Source: a virus. Taken from it: a DNA stretch of 64,000 nt. This document shows, piece by piece, positions 15,088 through 56,458 of this stretch (positions are counted from its first letter, which is position 1; each line of letters begins with the position of its first letter). The notes beneath the pieces are model-generated. The model had not been told where the DNA came from and ran no database searches. It worked only from the letters and a program-made list of their open reading frames with translations. The translations under genes were made by a program, and so were the position numbers. Where the stretch lies: IMG/VR virus record IMGVR_UViG_3300045988_111815, positions 80,893-144,892 of that record. The stretch is one strand, 5' to 3'.

Positions 15088-16335
15088 CATACTCCCATCG
15101 CTAAAGCAAACGGGATTCTTGGATACAAACGCAAGAAACCCCGATATTACTATCGTTGGAATTACTCTTACTCTCCAATTCGGAAATGCCCTTCCGAAGT
15201 ATATTACGGGCTGCAAGAATATCACGGTCGTTTACCGCTCCGCACGCCGGGCATACCCACGTGCGGTCGCGTAACGACAGTCCTTTATTAATGCAGCCAC
15301 ATTCGCAAGTTTTGGAAGAAGGATACCATTTATTAATCTTGTGTATCGTTACTCCATACTTTGAAGCAACATACGTAAGTTTATCAATAAAAGAAGAATG
15401 ACTGAGATCAGAAACTTTCTTTCCCCACAAACGTTTCATTCCTTCAATGTTTAGATCTTCAATAAAAATATAATCATACTGTTTGCATAACTGGTGTGCT
15501 AATCCCCATTGAAAATCTGATCGAAGATCGTTTATTTTACGATACGTTTGTTGGAGTTCAAACAGTCTCCTTCTTCTATTGTTGGATCCTTTCTTTGCAT
15601 TAGAAATCCGTTTATTTAGTTTTCTAATCTTGTTTTGATATTGTTTAAAGAATAATGGAGAATCGATTTTGCTACCATCGCTTTTAGTTAGATAAGTTTT
15701 CAGCCCAAAATCCAATCCGATAGATGCACCATCATGTGTCTTTCTATAAGAGTTTGAATGATTATGATCTGTAACTATAATCAAACTAAAACGGGAACAG
15801 GTTTCTCTAACTATTCTAATTTGTTTAACATTACCTTCGTAGACTCTACTGTATGAAAATCTAAATCGTTTCTTTCCTTTGTTAATTGTTAGACAATTCC
15901 CATTCAGGGTAAACCCTCCTTGTTTGAAAACAAAAGAGTTAAAACAATCAGCTCTTTTGAACTTAGGAGGTCGTTTAGCCAACTTCTTAAAGAAACGATT
16001 ATAAGATTCATCAAGACGTTCAAGTATTTCTTGTGTTGTTTGAGAATGAAGAAGATTTCTTTTAATTCTTTTGGTAAAATGTTTCTTCATTTTACCAATT
16101 GATATATATTTCCTAAACAGTTTGTAGTATCTACGTTGTAGAGCTAACGCATGATTCCATACAAAACAACATTCACGAAGCATTTTGTCAAGATACTTCG
16201 TTTTCTTGGAATGGTATATGTTGTATTTGTATGAAATCATTTTTATCTGTAATTTTGATTCAAAATTAATCAAACCAATTCATCCACCTTCTAAAGTATG
16301 GTGGTTTTGTTGGTTAAATTATCATAATTTCTATT
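15040..16335 (-). mobile_element. IS200/IS605-family TnpB-only (IS1341-like) insertion element; boundaries approximate
   Basis: Solitary tnpB on the strand opposite the flanking operon. No Y1 (HUH) TnpA is adjacent. The 74-nt upstream spacer contains hairpin CCACC…GGTGG (16284-16304). The 3' coding end contains a perfect palindrome TTCGGAA…TTCCGAA. Exact left/right ends could not be determined by eye. Confidence 0.5.
15101..16273 (-). CDS. tnpB: TnpB (OrfB) RNA-guided endonuclease-type transposon protein, IS605 family (390 aa)
   Basis: RuvC-I: IGLDFGLKTYLT. RuvC-II: IFIEDLNIEGM. Zn finger: CECGC…CPACG. RuvC-III: DRDILAARNI. N-terminal region is OrfB-like (…CFVWNHALALQRRYY…). Confidence 0.85.
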   Translation of the reverse strand: MINFESKLQIKMISYKYNIYHSKKTKYLDKMLRECCFVWNHALALQRRYYKLFRKYISIGKMKKHFTKRIKRNLLHSQTTQEILERLDESYNRFFKKLAKRPPKFKRADCFNSFVFKQGGFTLNGNCLTINKGKKRFRFSYSRVYEGNVKQIRIVRETCSRFSLIIVTDHNHSNSYRKTHDGASIGLDFGLKTYLTKSDGSKIDSPLFFKQYQNKIRKLNKRISNAKKGSNNRRRRLFELQQTYRKINDLRSDFQWGLAHQLCKQYDYIFIEDLNIEGMKRLWGKKVSDLSHSSFIDKLTYVASKYGVTIHKINKWYPSSKTCECGCINKGLSLRDRTWVCPACGAVNDRDILAARNILRKGISELESKSNSNDSNIGVSCVCIQESRLL

Positions 16336-48959: not shown

Positions 48960-49706
48960 TCAGTTGTTAGATAAAAGCAAAATCGGTTCATTTGACTCCG
49001 CAATTGCTTTTATTTGTTCTGGATTGATAAAACTCTTGACTTGTTCGCTTATATTACAAATGGACTTGATCATATCAACGAATAATTTTGAGGTGCATTC
49101 GTTGCATTCCACTTCCATTACCGGCTTATATCGATTGTATGACATACCTGCTACACAATTCAGCCAGTGCGCATAGGTTCCTTTTTCTGTATTTAACCTG
49201 CTGTATTCTACTTTTGTCTCTCCATTTCCATATTCAATTACTCTTTTTAGAAATGGTTTTGCATAAACACTAAAACCGAAAGGTTGGGTGTTTAAGGCAT
49301 CTAAACGGGAAGTTCCATCCCTCCATTTTCCATTTTCATCGCCTCCTGTCCATTCCTTAGAGGGGTTAGGGACAATATTTCCGTTTTTGTCATAGGAAAA
49401 CATGCAATTCGTTTCCAGTTGATACTTAATAATAGGCACTTCTTCTACTATTTTATAACTCAAACATCTCTTTAAAACTTCCCTGATTTGACTTTCCAAA
49501 TCAGAAAGTGCTATACTATTAAAATATCCTTCATTGCCTAATCTGTTTGTAGGTAATTTGATCCCATAAGAATGAATCTTATCCACATCTTCTTTTGATA
49601 AAGTAGTGGTAAACACCCCTTCTTTGGTGACATTCACTTTAGCAGTTACAGATAAACTGTTGTTAGCATTCTTTTCCGTTATATTTAGTGTTGTTAATGC
49701 TGCCAT
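48960..49706 (-). CDS. Hypothetical protein (248 aa)
   Basis: ORF only. Confidence 0.5.
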   Translation of the reverse strand: MAALTTLNITEKNANNSLSVTAKVNVTKEGVFTTTLSKEDVDKIHSYGIKLPTNRLGNEGYFNSIALSDLESQIREVLKRCLSYKIVEEVPIIKYQLETNCMFSYDKNGNIVPNPSKEWTGGDENGKWRDGTSRLDALNTQPFGFSVYAKPFLKRVIEYGNGETKVEYSRLNTEKGTYAHWLNCVAGMSYNRYKPVMEVECNECTSKLFVDMIKSICNISEQVKSFINPEQIKAIAESNEPILLLSNN

Positions 49707-49724
49707 AATCAGATCTTTTTAAAA

Positions 49725-49976
49725 TCAATTTGAATAAATATAATGCATTCCTGCTTCATATACCTTATGTACATCAGGGTCATTCTTGTCTTCCGGTTCC
49801 AATTCACTCTCTTCACGAGTATAATCCCATTCAGAGTTGTAGTACATATTCTCATTTGTTTTCTCCAAGGAGCAATCTTTCATCAAATTCAGATATTCTC
49901 CCCAAACTGCAACTTCTTGCTGTTGCTCTTCTTCTGTCATAAGAGATATTTTGTCTTTCAATTCTTTCCAGGTCAT
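49725..49976 (-). CDS. Acidic hypothetical protein (83 aa)
   Basis: ORF only. Confidence 0.4.
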   Translation of the reverse strand: MTWKELKDKISLMTEEEQQQEVAVWGEYLNLMKDCSLEKTNENMYYNSEWDYTREESELEPEDKNDPDVHKVYEAGMHYIYSN

Positions 49977-50005
49977 AGCTTGATTTATAAAAGGTGATTA
50001 CTAAT

Positions 50006-50389
50006 TCATTCCACATCAAAAAGTTGATCCAATACCAATAATTCCGCATTCATATCTTCATCTTTTGGAAAACGAACTTTTATGTTCCCAAACTTAGATG
50101 TTTTGAATAAAATGTAGGGATTCATATCCTCGGCAGTTACCGGTTTATATTCCTTGATTTCCGACATCTTGAGATACCAGTCGCCTATTTTCACAAATCC
50201 GGAGAAGACAGAACACAGATGCGCTTTTACAGACTGTATCTCCTTTTTATCTTTGAAAGGTATAATTTCCTCCTTCCCTCTTATCCTGATTGACAGGAAA
50301 GGACAAATATTATCTGTTTCATTTTGGAACTTAAAGCCTGTTATAGCCTGCTTTGGGATTCTTCTCCCCATTAATACAAAATAGCTCAT
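50006..50389 (-). CDS. Hypothetical protein (127 aa)
   Basis: ORF only. Confidence 0.45.
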   Translation of the reverse strand: MSYFVLMGRRIPKQAITGFKFQNETDNICPFLSIRIRGKEEIIPFKDKKEIQSVKAHLCSVFSGFVKIGDWYLKMSEIKEYKPVTAEDMNPYILFKTSKFGNIKVRFPKDEDMNAELLVLDQLFDVE

Positions 50390-50401
50390 TGTTGAAAATA
50401 T

Positions 50402-51199
50402 TTAATTGGACATAAATATACAAGTTTTACTAAGATATCCTTCTGTCATCTCTATGAAATTCACACAATCTAATTTGCTTAATTTGTAAATCAATGCCGG
50501 ATTGTGTATTATGGCTATAATTTGTGTTTGTGGTTTATGGAATGATAATACATTATAAATTTGCATTATATTGTCAATGTCAAGATTCCTGTCTGGCTCA
50601 TCCATGAGAACCGTGTATTCAAAACTGCTTTCTGCTAATGTTATGCGGTTTCTTTTATAATACTTCAACAGGCTATCAATCCTTTTAATCCAAAACGCAT
50701 TTGATTTTTTCTTGTATTCTACAAGATCTTGTATTGGAAACGTATAATCCTTTTGACCGAACATTAAATTGAAAAGTGATTCCAATGATAACACCACTTT
50801 CTCTCCATAAGATCTTCGAATATTATTCACATACAAATCTAAATTGCTGATGTTTTTCAATACACTATCTCGATTCATCTCCGCAGATGGTAATAAACGG
50901 AATACTTTCCCTGCATAATCGGATGATATGTCAATCCCATCAAGAACCTTGTCATCATCATCAAATATAGGTGGAAAATCCAGTGCCTCGATCGGTATTT
51001 CAGAGCACATGGATTTCTCACATAACGCATACATTGATATGATGTTAAGCAAAGTTGATTTTCCACTACCGTTTTTACCTACAATCACATTCACTCCTGG
51101 CTTGAAAATAAATTCTCTGCCATTTTCAAACGCTTCTATGTCAGAAACATATTCAAATGGAGTTTTCGTATTGTCTTTTATTTTTACTGATGTTATCAT
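50402..51199 (-). CDS. Minimal ABC-type ATPase (AAA_21/AAA_15-like, 265 aa)
   Basis: Walker A: VIVGKNGSGKSTLLN. Signature-like: RRSYGEKVVLSL. Walker B: TVLMDEPDRNLD. H-loop: IIAIIHN. Confidence 0.7.
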   Translation of the reverse strand: MITSVKIKDNTKTPFEYVSDIEAFENGREFIFKPGVNVIVGKNGSGKSTLLNIISMYALCEKSMCSEIPIEALDFPPIFDDDDKVLDGIDISSDYAGKVFRLLPSAEMNRDSVLKNISNLDLYVNNIRRSYGEKVVLSLESLFNLMFGQKDYTFPIQDLVEYKKKSNAFWIKRIDSLLKYYKRNRITLAESSFEYTVLMDEPDRNLDIDNIMQIYNVLSFHKPQTQIIAIIHNPALIYKLSKLDCVNFIEMTEGYLSKTCIFMSN

Positions 51200-51210
51200 T
51201 GTAATCCTTT

Positions 51211-52065
51211 TTAAAAATCAATTACCGTCCGAACCATGTCTCCGATGTGCTTGTTGCCGGTGCCCGTGAGGCCACTGGAGAAGACCACGTACCACGCGAC
51301 GGCCTGGCTGCTCTCAGTACTGGACCAATACCACGTCGAGGAGAGGGGAGATGCCGAAACATAAGTGAATGCTTTGTTTAGTTCGTCCATATAATGGGCC
51401 ATTAAATTTAATTGACCAAGAGATGGTATATACTCGCCATCTTCCAGCAGATTTCTCAATTTTGGATTTCTGGTTACAAGGCGTTCCGTATTGCCGCGTC
51501 CGTCAATGTCAAACAGCGCATCACATTCACGTTCGTAATATGTCCCACTTCCGGATTCTTCACGGCTATCATCGTCAAGCAATTGTATGATATCATGCTC
51601 CGTCAGTGAGATTGCAAATGACATGTATCTGTGCTTCAACCCAATGTATCGTACACAATCTTTGGAGTTATCGCCGGTAAACGGCTCTGCATGTCCGTCT
51701 TTGTAGATTATATACAGTCCGTCAGTTGACTCTTTCTTATCCTCTTCGGATGGTACTCTGTTTTCACATGTACATTTCTCACTTTTGGATCTTACGATTA
51801 TATTCAACTCATTTAATACATGATCCCTGATGACGCTCTCGCACGCTTTTCTTACAAAATCATGATCTCTTCGTTTGAGTTCATCATTCACCATGCATCT
51901 GATCCAGTTTTCTATCTGGTTGTCACCTCCATATGTATTAACCATGTACCGTTTTACGTGTTTCTCCAATAACGGCTCTATGTTTTTGATTATATCTTCT
52001 TTGGTAAGGTGAAGTTCATTTAATATACAGTTCCTTACTGCCTTGCATTCTTTACTTGTGCTCAT
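51211..52065 (-). CDS. Protein with DUF1566 (Lcl C-terminal)-like domain (284 aa)
   Basis: C-terminal …YIPSLGQLNLM…YWSSTESSQAVAWYVVFSSGLTGTGNKHIGDMVRTV matches, from memory, the WRLPT…YWSST…AW.V.F..G…K…VR.V pattern. Confidence 0.45.
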   Translation of the reverse strand: MSTSKECKAVRNCILNELHLTKEDIIKNIEPLLEKHVKRYMVNTYGGDNQIENWIRCMVNDELKRRDHDFVRKACESVIRDHVLNELNIIVRSKSEKCTCENRVPSEEDKKESTDGLYIIYKDGHAEPFTGDNSKDCVRYIGLKHRYMSFAISLTEHDIIQLLDDDSREESGSGTYYERECDALFDIDGRGNTERLVTRNPKLRNLLEDGEYIPSLGQLNLMAHYMDELNKAFTYVSASPLSSTWYWSSTESSQAVAWYVVFSSGLTGTGNKHIGDMVRTVIDF

Positions 52066-52076
52066 GATATGCCCAT

Positions 52077-52424
52077 TTAATACTGTGAATCATATTTTCT
52101 TTCTCTCCCGCTGTCTTCCCCTATAGGATTATCCCATCCGTATTTTACAGCCGTAGCTTTAAATAGAGGTAGCCCGTAAAATCCATAATCATCCTCATCC
52201 CAGTCTTCAAGACCTTCTTCCAGGATGTAGTTCCACATCATTACACATTCAAACATTAAACTGGCTGATATTCCTCTCTGATTTAATGCCTTTTCAAAAC
52301 CGAATCTTACATCTTCTTCAAGCTGTTTCAAAACATTCTCCCTGGTAAATTCAACTACAGTACTGTTCCACCTTTCTTCGTTATTGTATTCTTCGTTCGG
52401 CTCCATACCGAAATCCTTTATCAT
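52077..52424 (-). CDS. Acidic hypothetical protein (115 aa)
   Basis: ORF only. Confidence 0.45.
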   Translation of the reverse strand: MIKDFGMEPNEEYNNEERWNSTVVEFTRENVLKQLEEDVRFGFEKALNQRGISASLMFECVMMWNYILEEGLEDWDEDDYGFYGLPLFKATAVKYGWDNPIGEDSGRERKYDSQY

Positions 52425-52535
52425 GGTTATATGGGATAAATTTAGCCAGTCTGTTAAAATCTCTACCGTCTAAACATTTTGATTCTAATTCTTTAAGTTG
52501 TTCTAATGTTTTCATAAGCAATTTTGTTTTATAGG

Positions 52536-53215
52536 TTAATCCCATCCTCCAGTAGTGTACAAAGATATATCTTCCTCCTCTACGTTTACACCTTTAATAG
52601 CCTGTAGAAGTTTTTTCTTTGTCTCCCGGCACATATTGTAACCATATCCTTTATACCGATATGAGCGCTCCCATGTACTTACTGGAAAAGGGATATTTTC
52701 GTCAATAACCAGCCTCTTCATATGAAGATGTTCGAAGAATTTCTCATGATAGAGTAGTTTGTACTCGTATGCTACTATACTTGCAGATGAGAATGGAAAA
52801 TAATCATCTTCTTTTTCTTCGTATTTGGGCTCCTTATAGTAAGCCATTTTTGTCACAGTAAAATCGAAGCTCCTAAGAATCTCTTTCGGCTTTCCAAACT
52901 CTGACTCTATGAACTCTATCCATACTCTTTCTCCCTCTTTCTGGAACGCACATACCTTCTCATTTCTATATTTAAATTTCCATCCTTATTTCTGATGTTT
53001 TTCATCATTGAACAAATCAACAGTTTCCTGAAAATCGCTTTCACTTTCAAAGAAAATATCAATGTCTTTTACTTTTTCTCCGGAAGAATATTCTTAAAAC
53101 ATCCACCAGCTATAAACCCTTTGTGACCTTCCATATACTTGTCAAGCCATCTTATTTGCCAGAAATTATCTGGAGTATCTATTATAAAATTGTTCATATC
53201 GTTTATGTTTTGCTG
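52536..53215 (-). pseudogene. Disrupted class-II nucleotidyltransferase (CCA-adding/poly(A)-polymerase head-domain family) gene
   Basis: Three collinear minus-strand pieces. Frame 1: MNNFIIDTPDNFWQIRWLDKYMEGHKGFIAGGCFKNILPEKK*. Shifted frame: (K)VKDIDIFFESESDFQETVDLFNDEKHQK, then TAA (plus ~52986-52988). The same frame then continues: …KYRNEKVCAFQKEGERVWIEFIESEFGKPKEILRSFDFTVTKMAYYK… into track ORF 52536..52856. Motif A GGCFKNILPEKKVKDIDIF matches GGAVRD…KDIDI. Motif B RSFDFTVTKMA matches RRDFTINAMA. The frameshift maps to a homopolymer (plus ttttt at 53063-53067). Restoring one A gives PEKKVKDIDI. Confidence 0.5.
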
Positions 53216-53470
53216 TTACCAAGCGAGATAAAAATTCCGCTTCACAATAATACAGTGAGTGTAATTGCTCAGGTCGACTCCGTTGTCCGTAAATGTATCC
53301 AGGACTCGTTTTTCCACGTATTTGAGTTTTACCATTATCCCCTTCTTAAACACTTCTATTAACTTCTCATTGCACTCAATAGGTCCAATAAGACAGTATC
53401 TATTCGAAGGACTGTCTGATATACAATATGTCTGACATCCTAACATGTTGCTTAAAATATTCTCATACAT
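53216..53470 (-). CDS. Hypothetical protein (84 aa)
   Basis: ORF only. Confidence 0.4.
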   Translation of the reverse strand: MYENILSNMLGCQTYCISDSPSNRYCLIGPIECNEKLIEVFKKGIMVKLKYVEKRVLDTFTDNGVDLSNYTHCIIVKRNFYLAW

Positions 53471-53595
53471 ATTTTCTATATTTTACAATTCTTAGCTATG
53501 TTACTTAATTCAGCGGTCATTATCAAATCTGATAGTGACCGCCCCGCATGCACATTTTTGAATAAATTTTACTTTTAATAATTTTCTCATTAGAG

Positions 53596-53871
53596 TTATC
53601 CTCTATTTACTTTTTTCTTTATTTCTTCCGCGATCTCTTCTAATGTTGTTGGAGATAAATAATCATCTACCCTCAACTCTCTTACATAATCTAAGCAATC
53701 CAGACCCTTAGCATCTATTTCCTGCCTCTCTTCGTCGACCCATCTTAAAGTGCCATTTTCTCCACATTCCGGGCATTTATCTGCCCCACATGGAAGAAGC
53801 ATTTGCGCCCCACATAAGACACATCTCACCCAGTCTCCATGCTGCACCCCTTCGTATGTTATTGTTTTCAT
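53596..53871 (-). CDS. Zn-ribbon protein (91 aa)
   Basis: CVLCGAQ…CGADKCPECGENG. Confidence 0.45.
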   Translation of the reverse strand: MKTITYEGVQHGDWVRCVLCGAQMLLPCGADKCPECGENGTLRWVDEERQEIDAKGLDCLDYVRELRVDDYLSPTTLEEIAEEIKKKVNRG

Positions 53872-53876
53872 ATTTG

Positions 53877-54608
53877 TTATCCATTTTTATTAGTTCCTAA
53901 AAGATGCTCGTTACCCTCAAAAGGAATGCAACAATCCCATAATGTTCCATTGGAACATTCATGCTTATAAGACAATCCATCAGAATCGTCCACAATTTCC
54001 CTTGCAAACAAGCTGATATGCCATTCTTTATCATCCTCGTCTCTTACCAGCACTTTGTCAAACGGCTTAAACTCATATTTCGGTTTTTCTTCAATTCCGA
54101 AGAAGCGTTTTAGATATTCTTTTGCTTTAGGATTTTTGCTTTTCTTTAACGCTTTAATCATCCTCTGTTTTTCCGAATCTGTTGCAAGTCTATAGCATTC
54201 TATTTTGTTATTACATGCAGCAAGATTATCCGATATATTAAGACCTGTTATCGCTGCAAGACTCGCATAAAAAGATGTTAAATATTTCCCATGTGTATTT
54301 AAAATAAAAATAAAACTTCCATCTTCGTTGCTTAACACCTCTCCATCTTTAAATGTAATATATTCTGGAACTTCAAGAAGGAGGCGATTTTCGCTGCTAA
54401 GTGCTTTTCCTGTAGCAGAAAACCAATCTGCCGATACAGAAATCGAATGAATTACAACCAATAACGGACAACTTGACGAATTGTCTTCATATACGATTTC
54501 TGCTCTATTTCGTCCTTTCTCTGTCACAATCCGACCTTCTATTGCCCCTATGTTTATTTTTTTCGCCATTTCTAAATCAAACGGAATTGTTACTGTTTTC
54601 TGTTCCAT
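53877..54608 (-). CDS. Hypothetical protein, tandem paralogue A (243 aa)
   Basis: Shares VPFDL…A.KI..G.IEG, YRLAT..EK, DFKPFD.VLVR, LFAR and the C-terminal CIP..GNEHLLGTNKN with 54613..55356. Confidence 0.5.
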   Translation of the reverse strand: MEQKTVTIPFDLEMAKKINIGAIEGRIVTEKGRNRAEIVYEDNSSSCPLLVVIHSISVSADWFSATGKALSSENRLLLEVPEYITFKDGEVLSNEDGSFIFILNTHGKYLTSFYASLAAITGLNISDNLAACNNKIECYRLATDSEKQRMIKALKKSKNPKAKEYLKRFFGIEEKPKYEFKPFDKVLVRDEDDKEWHISLFAREIVDDSDGLSYKHECSNGTLWDCCIPFEGNEHLLGTNKNG

Positions 54609-54612
54609 AATC

Positions 54613-55356
54613 TTATTTGTTTTTATTAGTTCCTAAAAGATGCTCATTTCCTTGGTATGGAATACACTCTTTGTATCTCAAACCTCCCAAGCATTCATAT
54701 TTGTATTCTTCTTCTCTTACTCTGGCAAATAAGTGTAGATTCCAATTTCCCAAATTACTTGCTCTCACCAATACTTGATCGAATGGCTTAAAATCGCATT
54801 TCTTTTGTTCGTCAAGTAAATATTCGTACTTACTTAGATATTTTTTTATGATTTCTGTTTTTTCAAAGCTTTCTGTATTAGCAATTCTTTCAGCAAAAGA
54901 TTTTTTCTCTTCCTCTGTGGCTAATCTAACATACTTGGATTTATCCTCACCACACACACTTGTCCATATTGGAATTTCTTCAGATGTAATCTCGCCATAT
55001 GCCGATATACCATATATGCATCCCATATCTCCTTCTCTATTAATAATACCATTATATATAAATGGGTTCCCAAGCGTGCTTATTAATACATCTCCTTTCT
55101 TAAAATACGCTCCAGCCTCTACTTCCAATTCCAGAGTGGTGTCACCAAGAGTACAACCTTCTGTGTTAGCATATATAGCACTTATCCCATATCCATCTTT
55201 TTTTACAAAAAGTAAATTATAAGGACTTGTACAGTCTTTCGACTCATATACAAATTCTATTTCAATATCATTAATTAATACCGAACCTTCTATTTCTCCG
55301 CTTTTAATTTTTCTCGCCGTATTTAAATCAAACGGAACAATAATTGGATTTTCCAT
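54613..55356 (-). CDS. Hypothetical protein, tandem paralogue B (247 aa)
   Basis: Paralogue of 53877..54608; see above. Confidence 0.5.
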   Translation of the reverse strand: MENPIIVPFDLNTARKIKSGEIEGSVLINDIEIEFVYESKDCTSPYNLLFVKKDGYGISAIYANTEGCTLGDTTLELEVEAGAYFKKGDVLISTLGNPFIYNGIINREGDMGCIYGISAYGEITSEEIPIWTSVCGEDKSKYVRLATEEEKKSFAERIANTESFEKTEIIKKYLSKYEYLLDEQKKCDFKPFDQVLVRASNLGNWNLHLFARVREEEYKYECLGGLRYKECIPYQGNEHLLGTNKNK

Positions 55357-55396
55357 ATCTTTTCGTTTTTAATTGTTATAAAACAGGATGGGTTAC

Positions 55397-56458
55397 TTAC
55401 GCCCATCCCAGTTGTTTCGCAATACTTTCCATCTCGCTATATGCAATCCGGTGGCATCCAGCGGTTAACAAATCGTTTTCGTACCGATTTAGACTCCACT
55501 GGTGGCCGGTGACGTCCTCCACCAGACCGTGCCGAAACTCGGCGCCCCGGTGCATTGCCGACACAGCCCGCCACAGTTTTCTGGCTTCTGCTATTCCAAT
55601 CTTTATCTGTTTACTTGTCTCAATAATATTTCCTTTTATACGAATCCAGGCGTTAGGTTTTTCACCAGGAATATAGAAAGGTGTATTCAAGAAATTGATT
55701 TCTCCTGACTTCCACTCTTCCAGTTTTTCATCAAAATCCTTGTAACGGGCTTCTTCTTCCTTTCTTAATCTCTCTAATTTTATTCTTTCTCTTTCTTCCT
55801 CACCCTTTCTCCATCTTTCAGATCTTTCTGAATACTTAATCCATGTACCTTCCCCGCAAACTTCATCAACAATCACATTTACGGTCCCTAACACTTTTAA
55901 TCCTTGATGATCTAATAAAATTTGAAAGATGCGTTTTAATTCATGTACGTGCTTACGCTTGATACTATCTCCGCTCTTGGATAATTCATGATTGGTTCCA
56001 AGCCAATCATTAGCACTCTTTTTAAGGATACTCTTAGCAGTTCCCATGTTAAAGAACTGAATGTAATCCATCATATTCCCAAAAGCGCCCCAAATATCTG
56101 TATAAGATAATTCTGTTTTAGCTCTTTTGTATTTTTCAATAGACTTCTTAATTGATTCCAGTTTGCTGGCAACGAACCTCATATTACCAGTATCCGATAT
56201 ATTATCCCCTACACTGAAAACCATTGCCCAAGTTGGTATCGCATTACGAACATAGCATTGATGTTTGCTCGTGGTAACAGAATAATAATCTTCATTTATC
56301 AGGTATGCTTTCTTCCCTTGTTTGTTTTTTACTATTCTCCCGACTTCAAAGTGATGCCCATAAGAATAAATACTTGCACCTTCAAAGAAGAAATTGCTCC
56401 CTGATGCTGATTCTTCTTGTTCATGAGCCCACAAGTGAGCGACCATTGAATTGTTCAT
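55397..56458 (-). CDS. Hypothetical protein with central charged coiled-coil (353 aa)
   Basis: ORF only; ERERIKLERLRKEEEARYKDFDEKLEEW segment. Confidence 0.5.
   Translation of the reverse strand: MNNSMVAHLWAHEQEESASGSNFFFEGASIYSYGHHFEVGRIVKNKQGKKAYLINEDYYSVTTSKHQCYVRNAIPTWAMVFSVGDNISDTGNMRFVASKLESIKKSIEKYKRAKTELSYTDIWGAFGNMMDYIQFFNMGTAKSILKKSANDWLGTNHELSKSGDSIKRKHVHELKRIFQILLDHQGLKVLGTVNVIVDEVCGEGTWIKYSERSERWRKGEEERERIKLERLRKEEEARYKDFDEKLEEWKSGEINFLNTPFYIPGEKPNAWIRIKGNIIETSKQIKIGIAEARKLWRAVSAMHRGAEFRHGLVEDVTGHQWSLNRYENDLLTAGCHRIAYSEMESIAKQLGWA

Follow-up and report, generated by a model that had tools for sequence, protein, structure and literature searches.

In the window, the whole 64-kb stretch of viral DNA that was analysed, a broken locus on the minus strand (Table 1) is taken, with a probability of about 0.88, to be a genuine pseudogene, derived from an accessory phage gene for a nucleotidyltransferase related to Gad2. 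In intact relatives the gene encodes a minimal nucleotidyltransferase of 220 aa, made up of a head of class-II (CCA-adding-like) type and the beginning of the neck. In this phage lineage the T3 run at codons 38/39 has lost one T, shifting the frame before the catalytic DxD, and Glu71 has, probably later, mutated to TAA. A reading made earlier from the letters alone (hereafter the sequence-only reading) had left three options: a decaying pseudogene, a homopolymer sequencing or assembly error, or a recoded gene. The first of these is borne out, as intact orthologues are abundant, other assemblies contain the same two lesions, and a diverged relative has the T deletion alone; the locus is therefore read as a real pseudogene and not as an error or a recoded gene.

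Structure of the locus and the repaired protein

Table 1. Coordinates of the locus, its lesions and the adjoining genes in the window
Feature	Position	Strand	Description
Whole pseudogene	52536..53197	(-)	Orthologue of the intact 220-aa CDS WOZ57379.1 (phage csAssE-Sib), short form of the Gad2 family (PF26128)
N-terminal fragment ORF	53069..53197	(-)	42 aa (MNNF..GGCFKNILPEKK, then stop); GG motif present, catalytic DxD absent
Frameshift site	53084..53085	(-)	T2 where all 87 intact alleles carry T3, codons 38/39
A5 run followed by TAA	53069..53077	(-)	AAAAAGTAA; run at 53073-53077, unchanged with respect to many intact alleles
Premature TAA	52986..52988	(-)	GAA (Glu71) to TAA; private to the window allele
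C-terminal remnant ORF	52536..52856	(-)	106 aa from GTG, or 103 aa from ATG 52847
Upstream ORF	53216..53470	(-)	84 aa; in the reading frame of the transferase, with TAA and six codons between
Downstream neighbour gene	52077..52545	(-)	145 aa in csAssE-Sib and other relatives; frameshifted in the window

The start codon of the gene is the ATG at 53197-53195, and the 42-aa ORF that begins there terminates at the TAA at 53071-53069. The middle segment, in the -1 frame, reads ..SGEKVKDIDIFF..HQK (also read ..SGEKVKDIDIFFESESDFQETVDLFNDEKHQK) and terminates at the TAA at 52988-52986. Past this internal stop the same frame reads GWKFKYRNEK..RSFDFTVTKMAYYK..GGWD and ends at the TAA at 52538-52536. 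When both lesions are repaired, a protein of 220 aa is obtained, of which residues 4-218 match phrog_4400 end to end (E 1.5e-63), and a match of this strength places the three-piece reconstruction far beyond chance. The joining of three collinear minus-strand segments into one protein, as proposed from the sequence alone, thus stands, rebuilt here from the ORFs, while its size is 220 aa rather than about 215 aa. The two proposed signatures, motif A and motif B, are also present in the repaired protein as GG..x12..DIDIFF and FDFTV, and both are invariant across the family. Against the intact orthologue, blastn gave 94.7% identity with one gap.

The C-terminal remnant holds the FDFTV motif and a helical 'neck' but not the catalytic DxD, without which it could not by itself form an active transferase. 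Its 103-aa product from the ATG is on public record, and an exact-protein look-up returned no record of the 106-aa product from the GTG. The 42-aa N-terminal product has been called in identical form on 10-12 public contigs. The region of the C-terminal remnant (52536-52856) matches phrog_24565, an uncharacterised family of 108 positions; on the repaired protein this match is confined to residues 109-211 (E 9e-23). The family was probably seeded by C-terminal pseudogene remnants of the same kind. Such remnants do get called as proteins.

Position and nature of the two lesions

DNA alignment to the csAssE-Sib orthologue revealed two disabling differences, the T deletion and a TAA in place of GAA. 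At the first, the window reads AATATTCTTCCGG and the orthologue AATATCCTTTCCGG, one T having gone from the T3 run (CTTTCC to CTTCC), as is also seen against the 87 intact alleles of the related loci that were fetched. In 87 of 87 of these alleles the run is T3 and codon 71 is GAA, and the only private changes of the window allele with respect to them are the T deletion, the nonsense change at E71 and K91R.

The sequence-only reading was right that the gene is broken by a frameshift and an in-frame TAA, and the TAA that it placed at about 52986-52988 is the changed Glu71 codon; the site and the cause that it gave for the frameshift have to be replaced. It had set the break at an A5 run at 53063-53067. 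That run lies ten nucleotides away and is unaltered, the real indel being the loss of T at 53084-53085, and the junction is not ILPEKK joined to VKDIDIFF but reads, in its ancestral form, GGCFKNILSGEKVKDIDIFF. The sequence AAAAAG is an ordinary Lys/Arg polymorphism: of 81 related loci sampled, 24 have it, all without the T deletion. The A5 run is simply the place where the shifted frame happens upon a stop.

Predicted fold and the question of tRNA maturation

An AlphaFold2 model was available for an orthologue with 95% identity (pLDDT 83, pTM 0.78). In a Foldseek search of the PDB with this model, the top 41 matches were all class-II tRNA nucleotidyltransferases or E. coli poly(A) polymerase, with E-values of 1.6e-7 to 2e-3, a probability of 1.00, about 200 aligned columns and a query TM of about 0.5. 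After these matches there was a sharp drop, with MenT, Cid1 and pol beta near E 0.1. The predicted fold is of the class-II CCA-adding/poly(A) polymerase type, comprising the head and the start of the neck only, and the model therefore agrees with the head-domain fold proposed from the sequence alone. The body and tail domains are absent: the PDB enzymes matched are 340-520 aa long and this protein 220 aa, and target TM scores are 0.23-0.35. Conserved residues of the intact enzyme are G31-G32, D45-x-D47, E95 and F-D112-F-T. In the family alignment G31, G32, D45 and D47 are invariant, as are F111-D112-F113-T114 of motif B, in which the two arginines of RRD vary (RS, DR, DN, NN, EA).

Membership of the Pfam family PolyA_pol, also assumed in the sequence-only reading, was not upheld: the repaired protein scored 13.8 bits (E 0.075) against PF01743, under the gathering cut-off of 23. 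Moreover, phmmer and the family profile, searched against PDB sequences, gave no match to a CCA-adding enzyme or poly(A) polymerase.

The proposal that the locus is a working tRNA-maturation gene (CCA-adding or poly(A)), split or recently damaged and lying near tRNA-like elements, is very unlikely. In its favour are the resemblance of the fold to those of CCA-adding, A-adding and poly(A) polymerase enzymes and the label 'polyA polymerase' that GenBank annotators gave the orthologue, but ARAGORN detected zero tRNA or tmRNA genes, and Rfam gave zero matches at gathering score, in the whole 64-kb window, so that the suggested link to nearby CCA-less tRNA-like elements loses its basis. The missing body and tail, which the length and the target TM make evident, are the parts that bind tRNA; the low PolyA_pol score and the variable arginines of motif B weigh on the same side, as does a DxD piece that has no start codon and so would not permit a split enzyme.

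The genomic contexts of the homologues also speak against this proposal. A distant short homologue in Bacteroides phage BF503P1 lies among dUTPase and dCMP hydroxymethylase genes, and another, in a S. thermophilus Moineauvirus, lies between RecT and SSB. Location in modules of DNA replication and nucleotide metabolism points to DNA biology rather than tRNA biology, although an anti-defence role is not proven by it. The label 'polyA polymerase' or 'CCA-adding enzyme' on such short phage proteins is misleading, since the fold is shared and the tRNA-binding part is absent.

Assignment to the Gad2 family

The better family label is Pfam PF26128, Gad2. This family is precomputed on the intact 220-aa orthologues (E <= 1e-5) and on 118 of the 120 homologues listed. 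Gad2, which gives the family its name, is a Bacillus-phage protein that cancels Gabija defence, and its mechanism is not yet established (PMC12904381). Verified Gad2 sequences were taken from the supplement of Yirmiya et al. (bioRxiv 10.1101/2023.05.01.538930). BLASTP against them gave E 5e-8 for the protein of SPbetaL7 and 6e-12 for that of B. laterosporus; identity was 22-24% across the ~175 N-terminal residues aligned. With hhalign, a 39-sequence family alignment matched Gad2 at 95.9% over Gad2 residues 22-163. At the furthest, the BLASTP and hhalign alignments reach Gad2 residue ~177; the full architecture of ~400 aa with its C-terminal domain is absent, the orthologues being 220 aa long. 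NCBIfam has no match for the window protein or for Gad2.

By analogy, the intact protein may be an anti-defence enzyme that a phage could dispense with on some hosts. An anti-Gabija role would be extrapolated from Gad2 proteins of ~400 aa that are 22-24% identical over the N-terminal 175 residues. The short, 220-aa form is itself found in Bacteroides, Streptococcus thermophilus, Listeria, Lactococcus and Aeromonas phages, and a paper on S. thermophilus defence makes no mention of Gad2-like genes.

Reality of the lesions

Window positions 49077-55424 are 100% identical to NODE_10 of ENA ERZ1755549, a 137.8 kb contig, and the gene region is 100% identical to a contig of ENA ERZ914301 (ERR1293552); these are separate assemblies, which may stem from the same individual. 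Alleles were located by exact-protein look-up in ENA and Logan, and the split gene calls of 42 aa and 103 aa are common to about ten contigs of these collections. Exact-pattern scans for each lesion gave no match in IMG/VR and none in JGI metagenome contigs. A further Logan contig, SRR20677885, is ~7% diverged; it has the T deletion and K91R in common with the window but lacks the TAA. The presence there of the deletion without the nonsense codon suggests that the frameshift arose before the TAA.

It is highly improbable that the real phage gene is intact and that the frameshift is a miscounted homopolymer. The indel does fall within a short T run, and other variants of +/-1 at A5 and A6 runs exist in public contigs, but the run changes merely from T3 to T2, and the second lesion is a G-to-T substitution, which is no miscount of a homopolymer. 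An error would also have to account for the two lesions at 100% identity in the separate ENA assemblies, the same split calls on about ten contigs, and the T deletion in a contig diverged by 7%. The remainder of the window is densely coding: ORFs of at least 70 aa cover 90% of it, with only four gaps of more than 250 nt, one of which is this locus, and the window assembly is therefore not error-ridden. The homopolymer error that the sequence-only reading had allowed for thus fails, the A5 run being unchanged and both lesions recurring.

Recurrent mutation at the T3 run was considered and set aside, as K91R, otherwise private, is common to two T-deletion alleles; a single origin with later recombination is at least as likely. 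The T-deletion allele is seen on several sequence backgrounds, in protein tails and in the DNA of one related locus (L098), and this could hint at something more than a simple dead allele. In three other IMG/VR contigs (L125, L128 and L169), the A6 run at codon ~195 (GACAAAGAAAAAACTT) has one A more or less in copies that are otherwise intact; these may be real variants or homopolymer errors.

Decoding of the broken gene

Recoding would require a programmed -1 frameshift on G_AAA_AAG before the TAA to restore the frame, together with readthrough of the internal TAA, and is extremely improbable. AAA_AAG ahead of a stop codon is known to be weakly prone to shifting, slippage by -1 at this point does restore the frame, and low-level expression could in principle help, as Gad2 of SPbetaL7 is toxic when expressed; even so, the heptamer is non-canonical (not X_XXY_YYZ), the 24 loci that carry AAAAAG do so without the T deletion, the T deletion also occurs with AAAGAG (a protein tail ending PEKE before the stop, P0125; 5 contigs), where nothing is slippery, and a shifted ribosome would still halt at the TAA of codon 71. 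TAA is moreover the commonest stop of the window, ending 42 of the 72 long ORFs picked there, including the transferase gene and both of its neighbours, and ARAGORN found no suppressor tRNA. The internal TAA is a private mutation of a codon that is GAA in every one of the 87 intact alleles, and the option of a recoded gene is therefore abandoned.

From the frame-2 stop to the internal TAA, a TTG at codon 62 is the sole in-frame start, and it lies past the DxD. Lack of a start codon for the DxD-bearing segment would make a split enzyme impossible, and it implies that no active enzyme could be made from the window allele.

Intact relatives and variation among related phages

In GenBank the closest relative is csAssE-Sib, a human-gut phage of 151 kb (OR575929.1), in which an intact 220-aa CDS, WOZ57379.1, is found at the same place and annotated as 'polyA polymerase'. 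No paper in the literature mentions csAssE-Sib. The intact relatives are human-gut Caudoviricetes of ~150 kb. Comparison with orthologues, suggested by the sequence-only reading as a way forward, found intact and collinear copies in csAssE-Sib and in the 87 alleles aligned. Among the best 80 IMG/VR loci, the query is covered in a single frame from near end to end, and two of the 80 contain a nonsense codon.

A separate set of 80 IMG/VR loci was anchored on the neighbouring 284-aa gene, which avoids bias by the state of the transferase gene. The transferase gene was intact in 57 of these, point-broken in 4, a 5'-deleted remnant in 5 and absent in 8, with 6 loci uninformative. The gene is thus accessory in the related phages, about 77% of copies being intact and the others broken, truncated or absent. 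More than 15 disabling alleles were seen among the relatives and in the protein collection. Other nonsense alleles affect codon 13, Q14, K35, G40, E41 and Q69; indel alleles include +T in T4, +T in T3, +/-A in A5, a G deletion and +/-A in the A6 run near codon 195, and internal deletions also occur.

Chimeras were found as well, in which several foreign N-termini are joined to transferase residues ~80-100 onward. Independent deletions or replacements of this kind are carried by relatives L093, L095 and L096 and by proteins P0020, P0088, P0090 and P0113, and one of the N-termini corresponds to the first half of a 243-aa gene of the window, at 53877-54608. The transferase gene therefore borders a hypervariable stretch.

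An excess of loss of function over neighbouring genes was looked for, and the controls show no clear excess: the neighbouring 284-aa gene has a comparable rate of broken copies. The allele diversity is therefore read as ordinary turnover in a variable accessory region and not as special selection. It has been reported that gad3 blocks Gabija but triggers AbiK (bioRxiv 10.64898/2026.03.26.714447). That the knock-outs reflect selection by a host defence which senses the Gad2-like enzyme, in a similar trade-off, would be an unlikely reading.

Neighbouring genes

In some relatives the upstream ORF is fused to the transferase, giving proteins of 311 aa (P0001, P0002, P0004-P0010). A sense codon there replaces the separating stop; P0004 has Gln, most simply explained by a change of TAA to CAA. 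The downstream neighbour has an extra C at 52425-52426 in the window (ATAACCATGA against ATAG-CATGA), which leaves ORFs of 54 aa and 115 aa; an internal ATG could still allow the second of these to be translated. A different lesion is seen in the same downstream gene of relative L082, where CAA has become TAA at codon 6. A conserved module of the transferase and the downstream 145-aa gene was considered and is unsupported in distant phages.

Two genes downstream, at 50402-51199 on the minus strand, lies a conserved gene of 265 aa for an AAA_23/SMC_N-type ATPase, which is present in nearly all relatives. A few kb downstream, relative L090 has an OrfB_IS605-like (TnpB-type) gene, and the sequence at that place (L090:5445-6137 and L090:5356-6348) matches window positions 15337-16327, a distant part of the window. 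This match points to a mobile element, or else to a rearrangement between the relatives.

Comparison with known systems

The family was already in Pfam and the intact orthologue annotated in GenBank, and the decayed copy matters little in itself. The short Gad2-family form of 220 aa is widespread and may offer a compact subject for the function of the Gad2 transferase domain.

Among the closest known systems, WOZ57379.1 of csAssE-Sib is the direct orthologue, with 93.6% protein identity and the same neighbours; it is intact, unlike the window copy with its frameshift and its nonsense codon. With the class-II tRNA nucleotidyltransferases and poly(A) polymerase I (PDB 4wc2, 1vfg, 3aql, 3h37, 1miv, 1ou5), the predicted protein shares the head fold and the first neck helices, the GG..DxD of motif A and the DFT core of motif B. 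It differs from them in the varying arginines of motif B, and it has no body or tail, a Pfam score under the cut-off, no sequence-profile match to the PDB and no tRNA context.

Comparison with the verified Gad2 proteins of Bacillus phage SPbetaL7 and a Brevibacillus laterosporus prophage shows differences in size, origin and state. The entire C-terminal half of these ~400-aa proteins is absent from the 220-aa window family; they belong to Firmicutes phages, whereas the window gene is from a human-gut, probably Bacteroidota, phage; and the window copy is dead. Like Gad2, the gene is phage-borne and accessory, and the N-terminal nucleotidyltransferase domains of the two are homologous, sharing the motifs IAGG..x12..DxDhxF, FDFTV, HEDF..H and PFP..S..R..KY.
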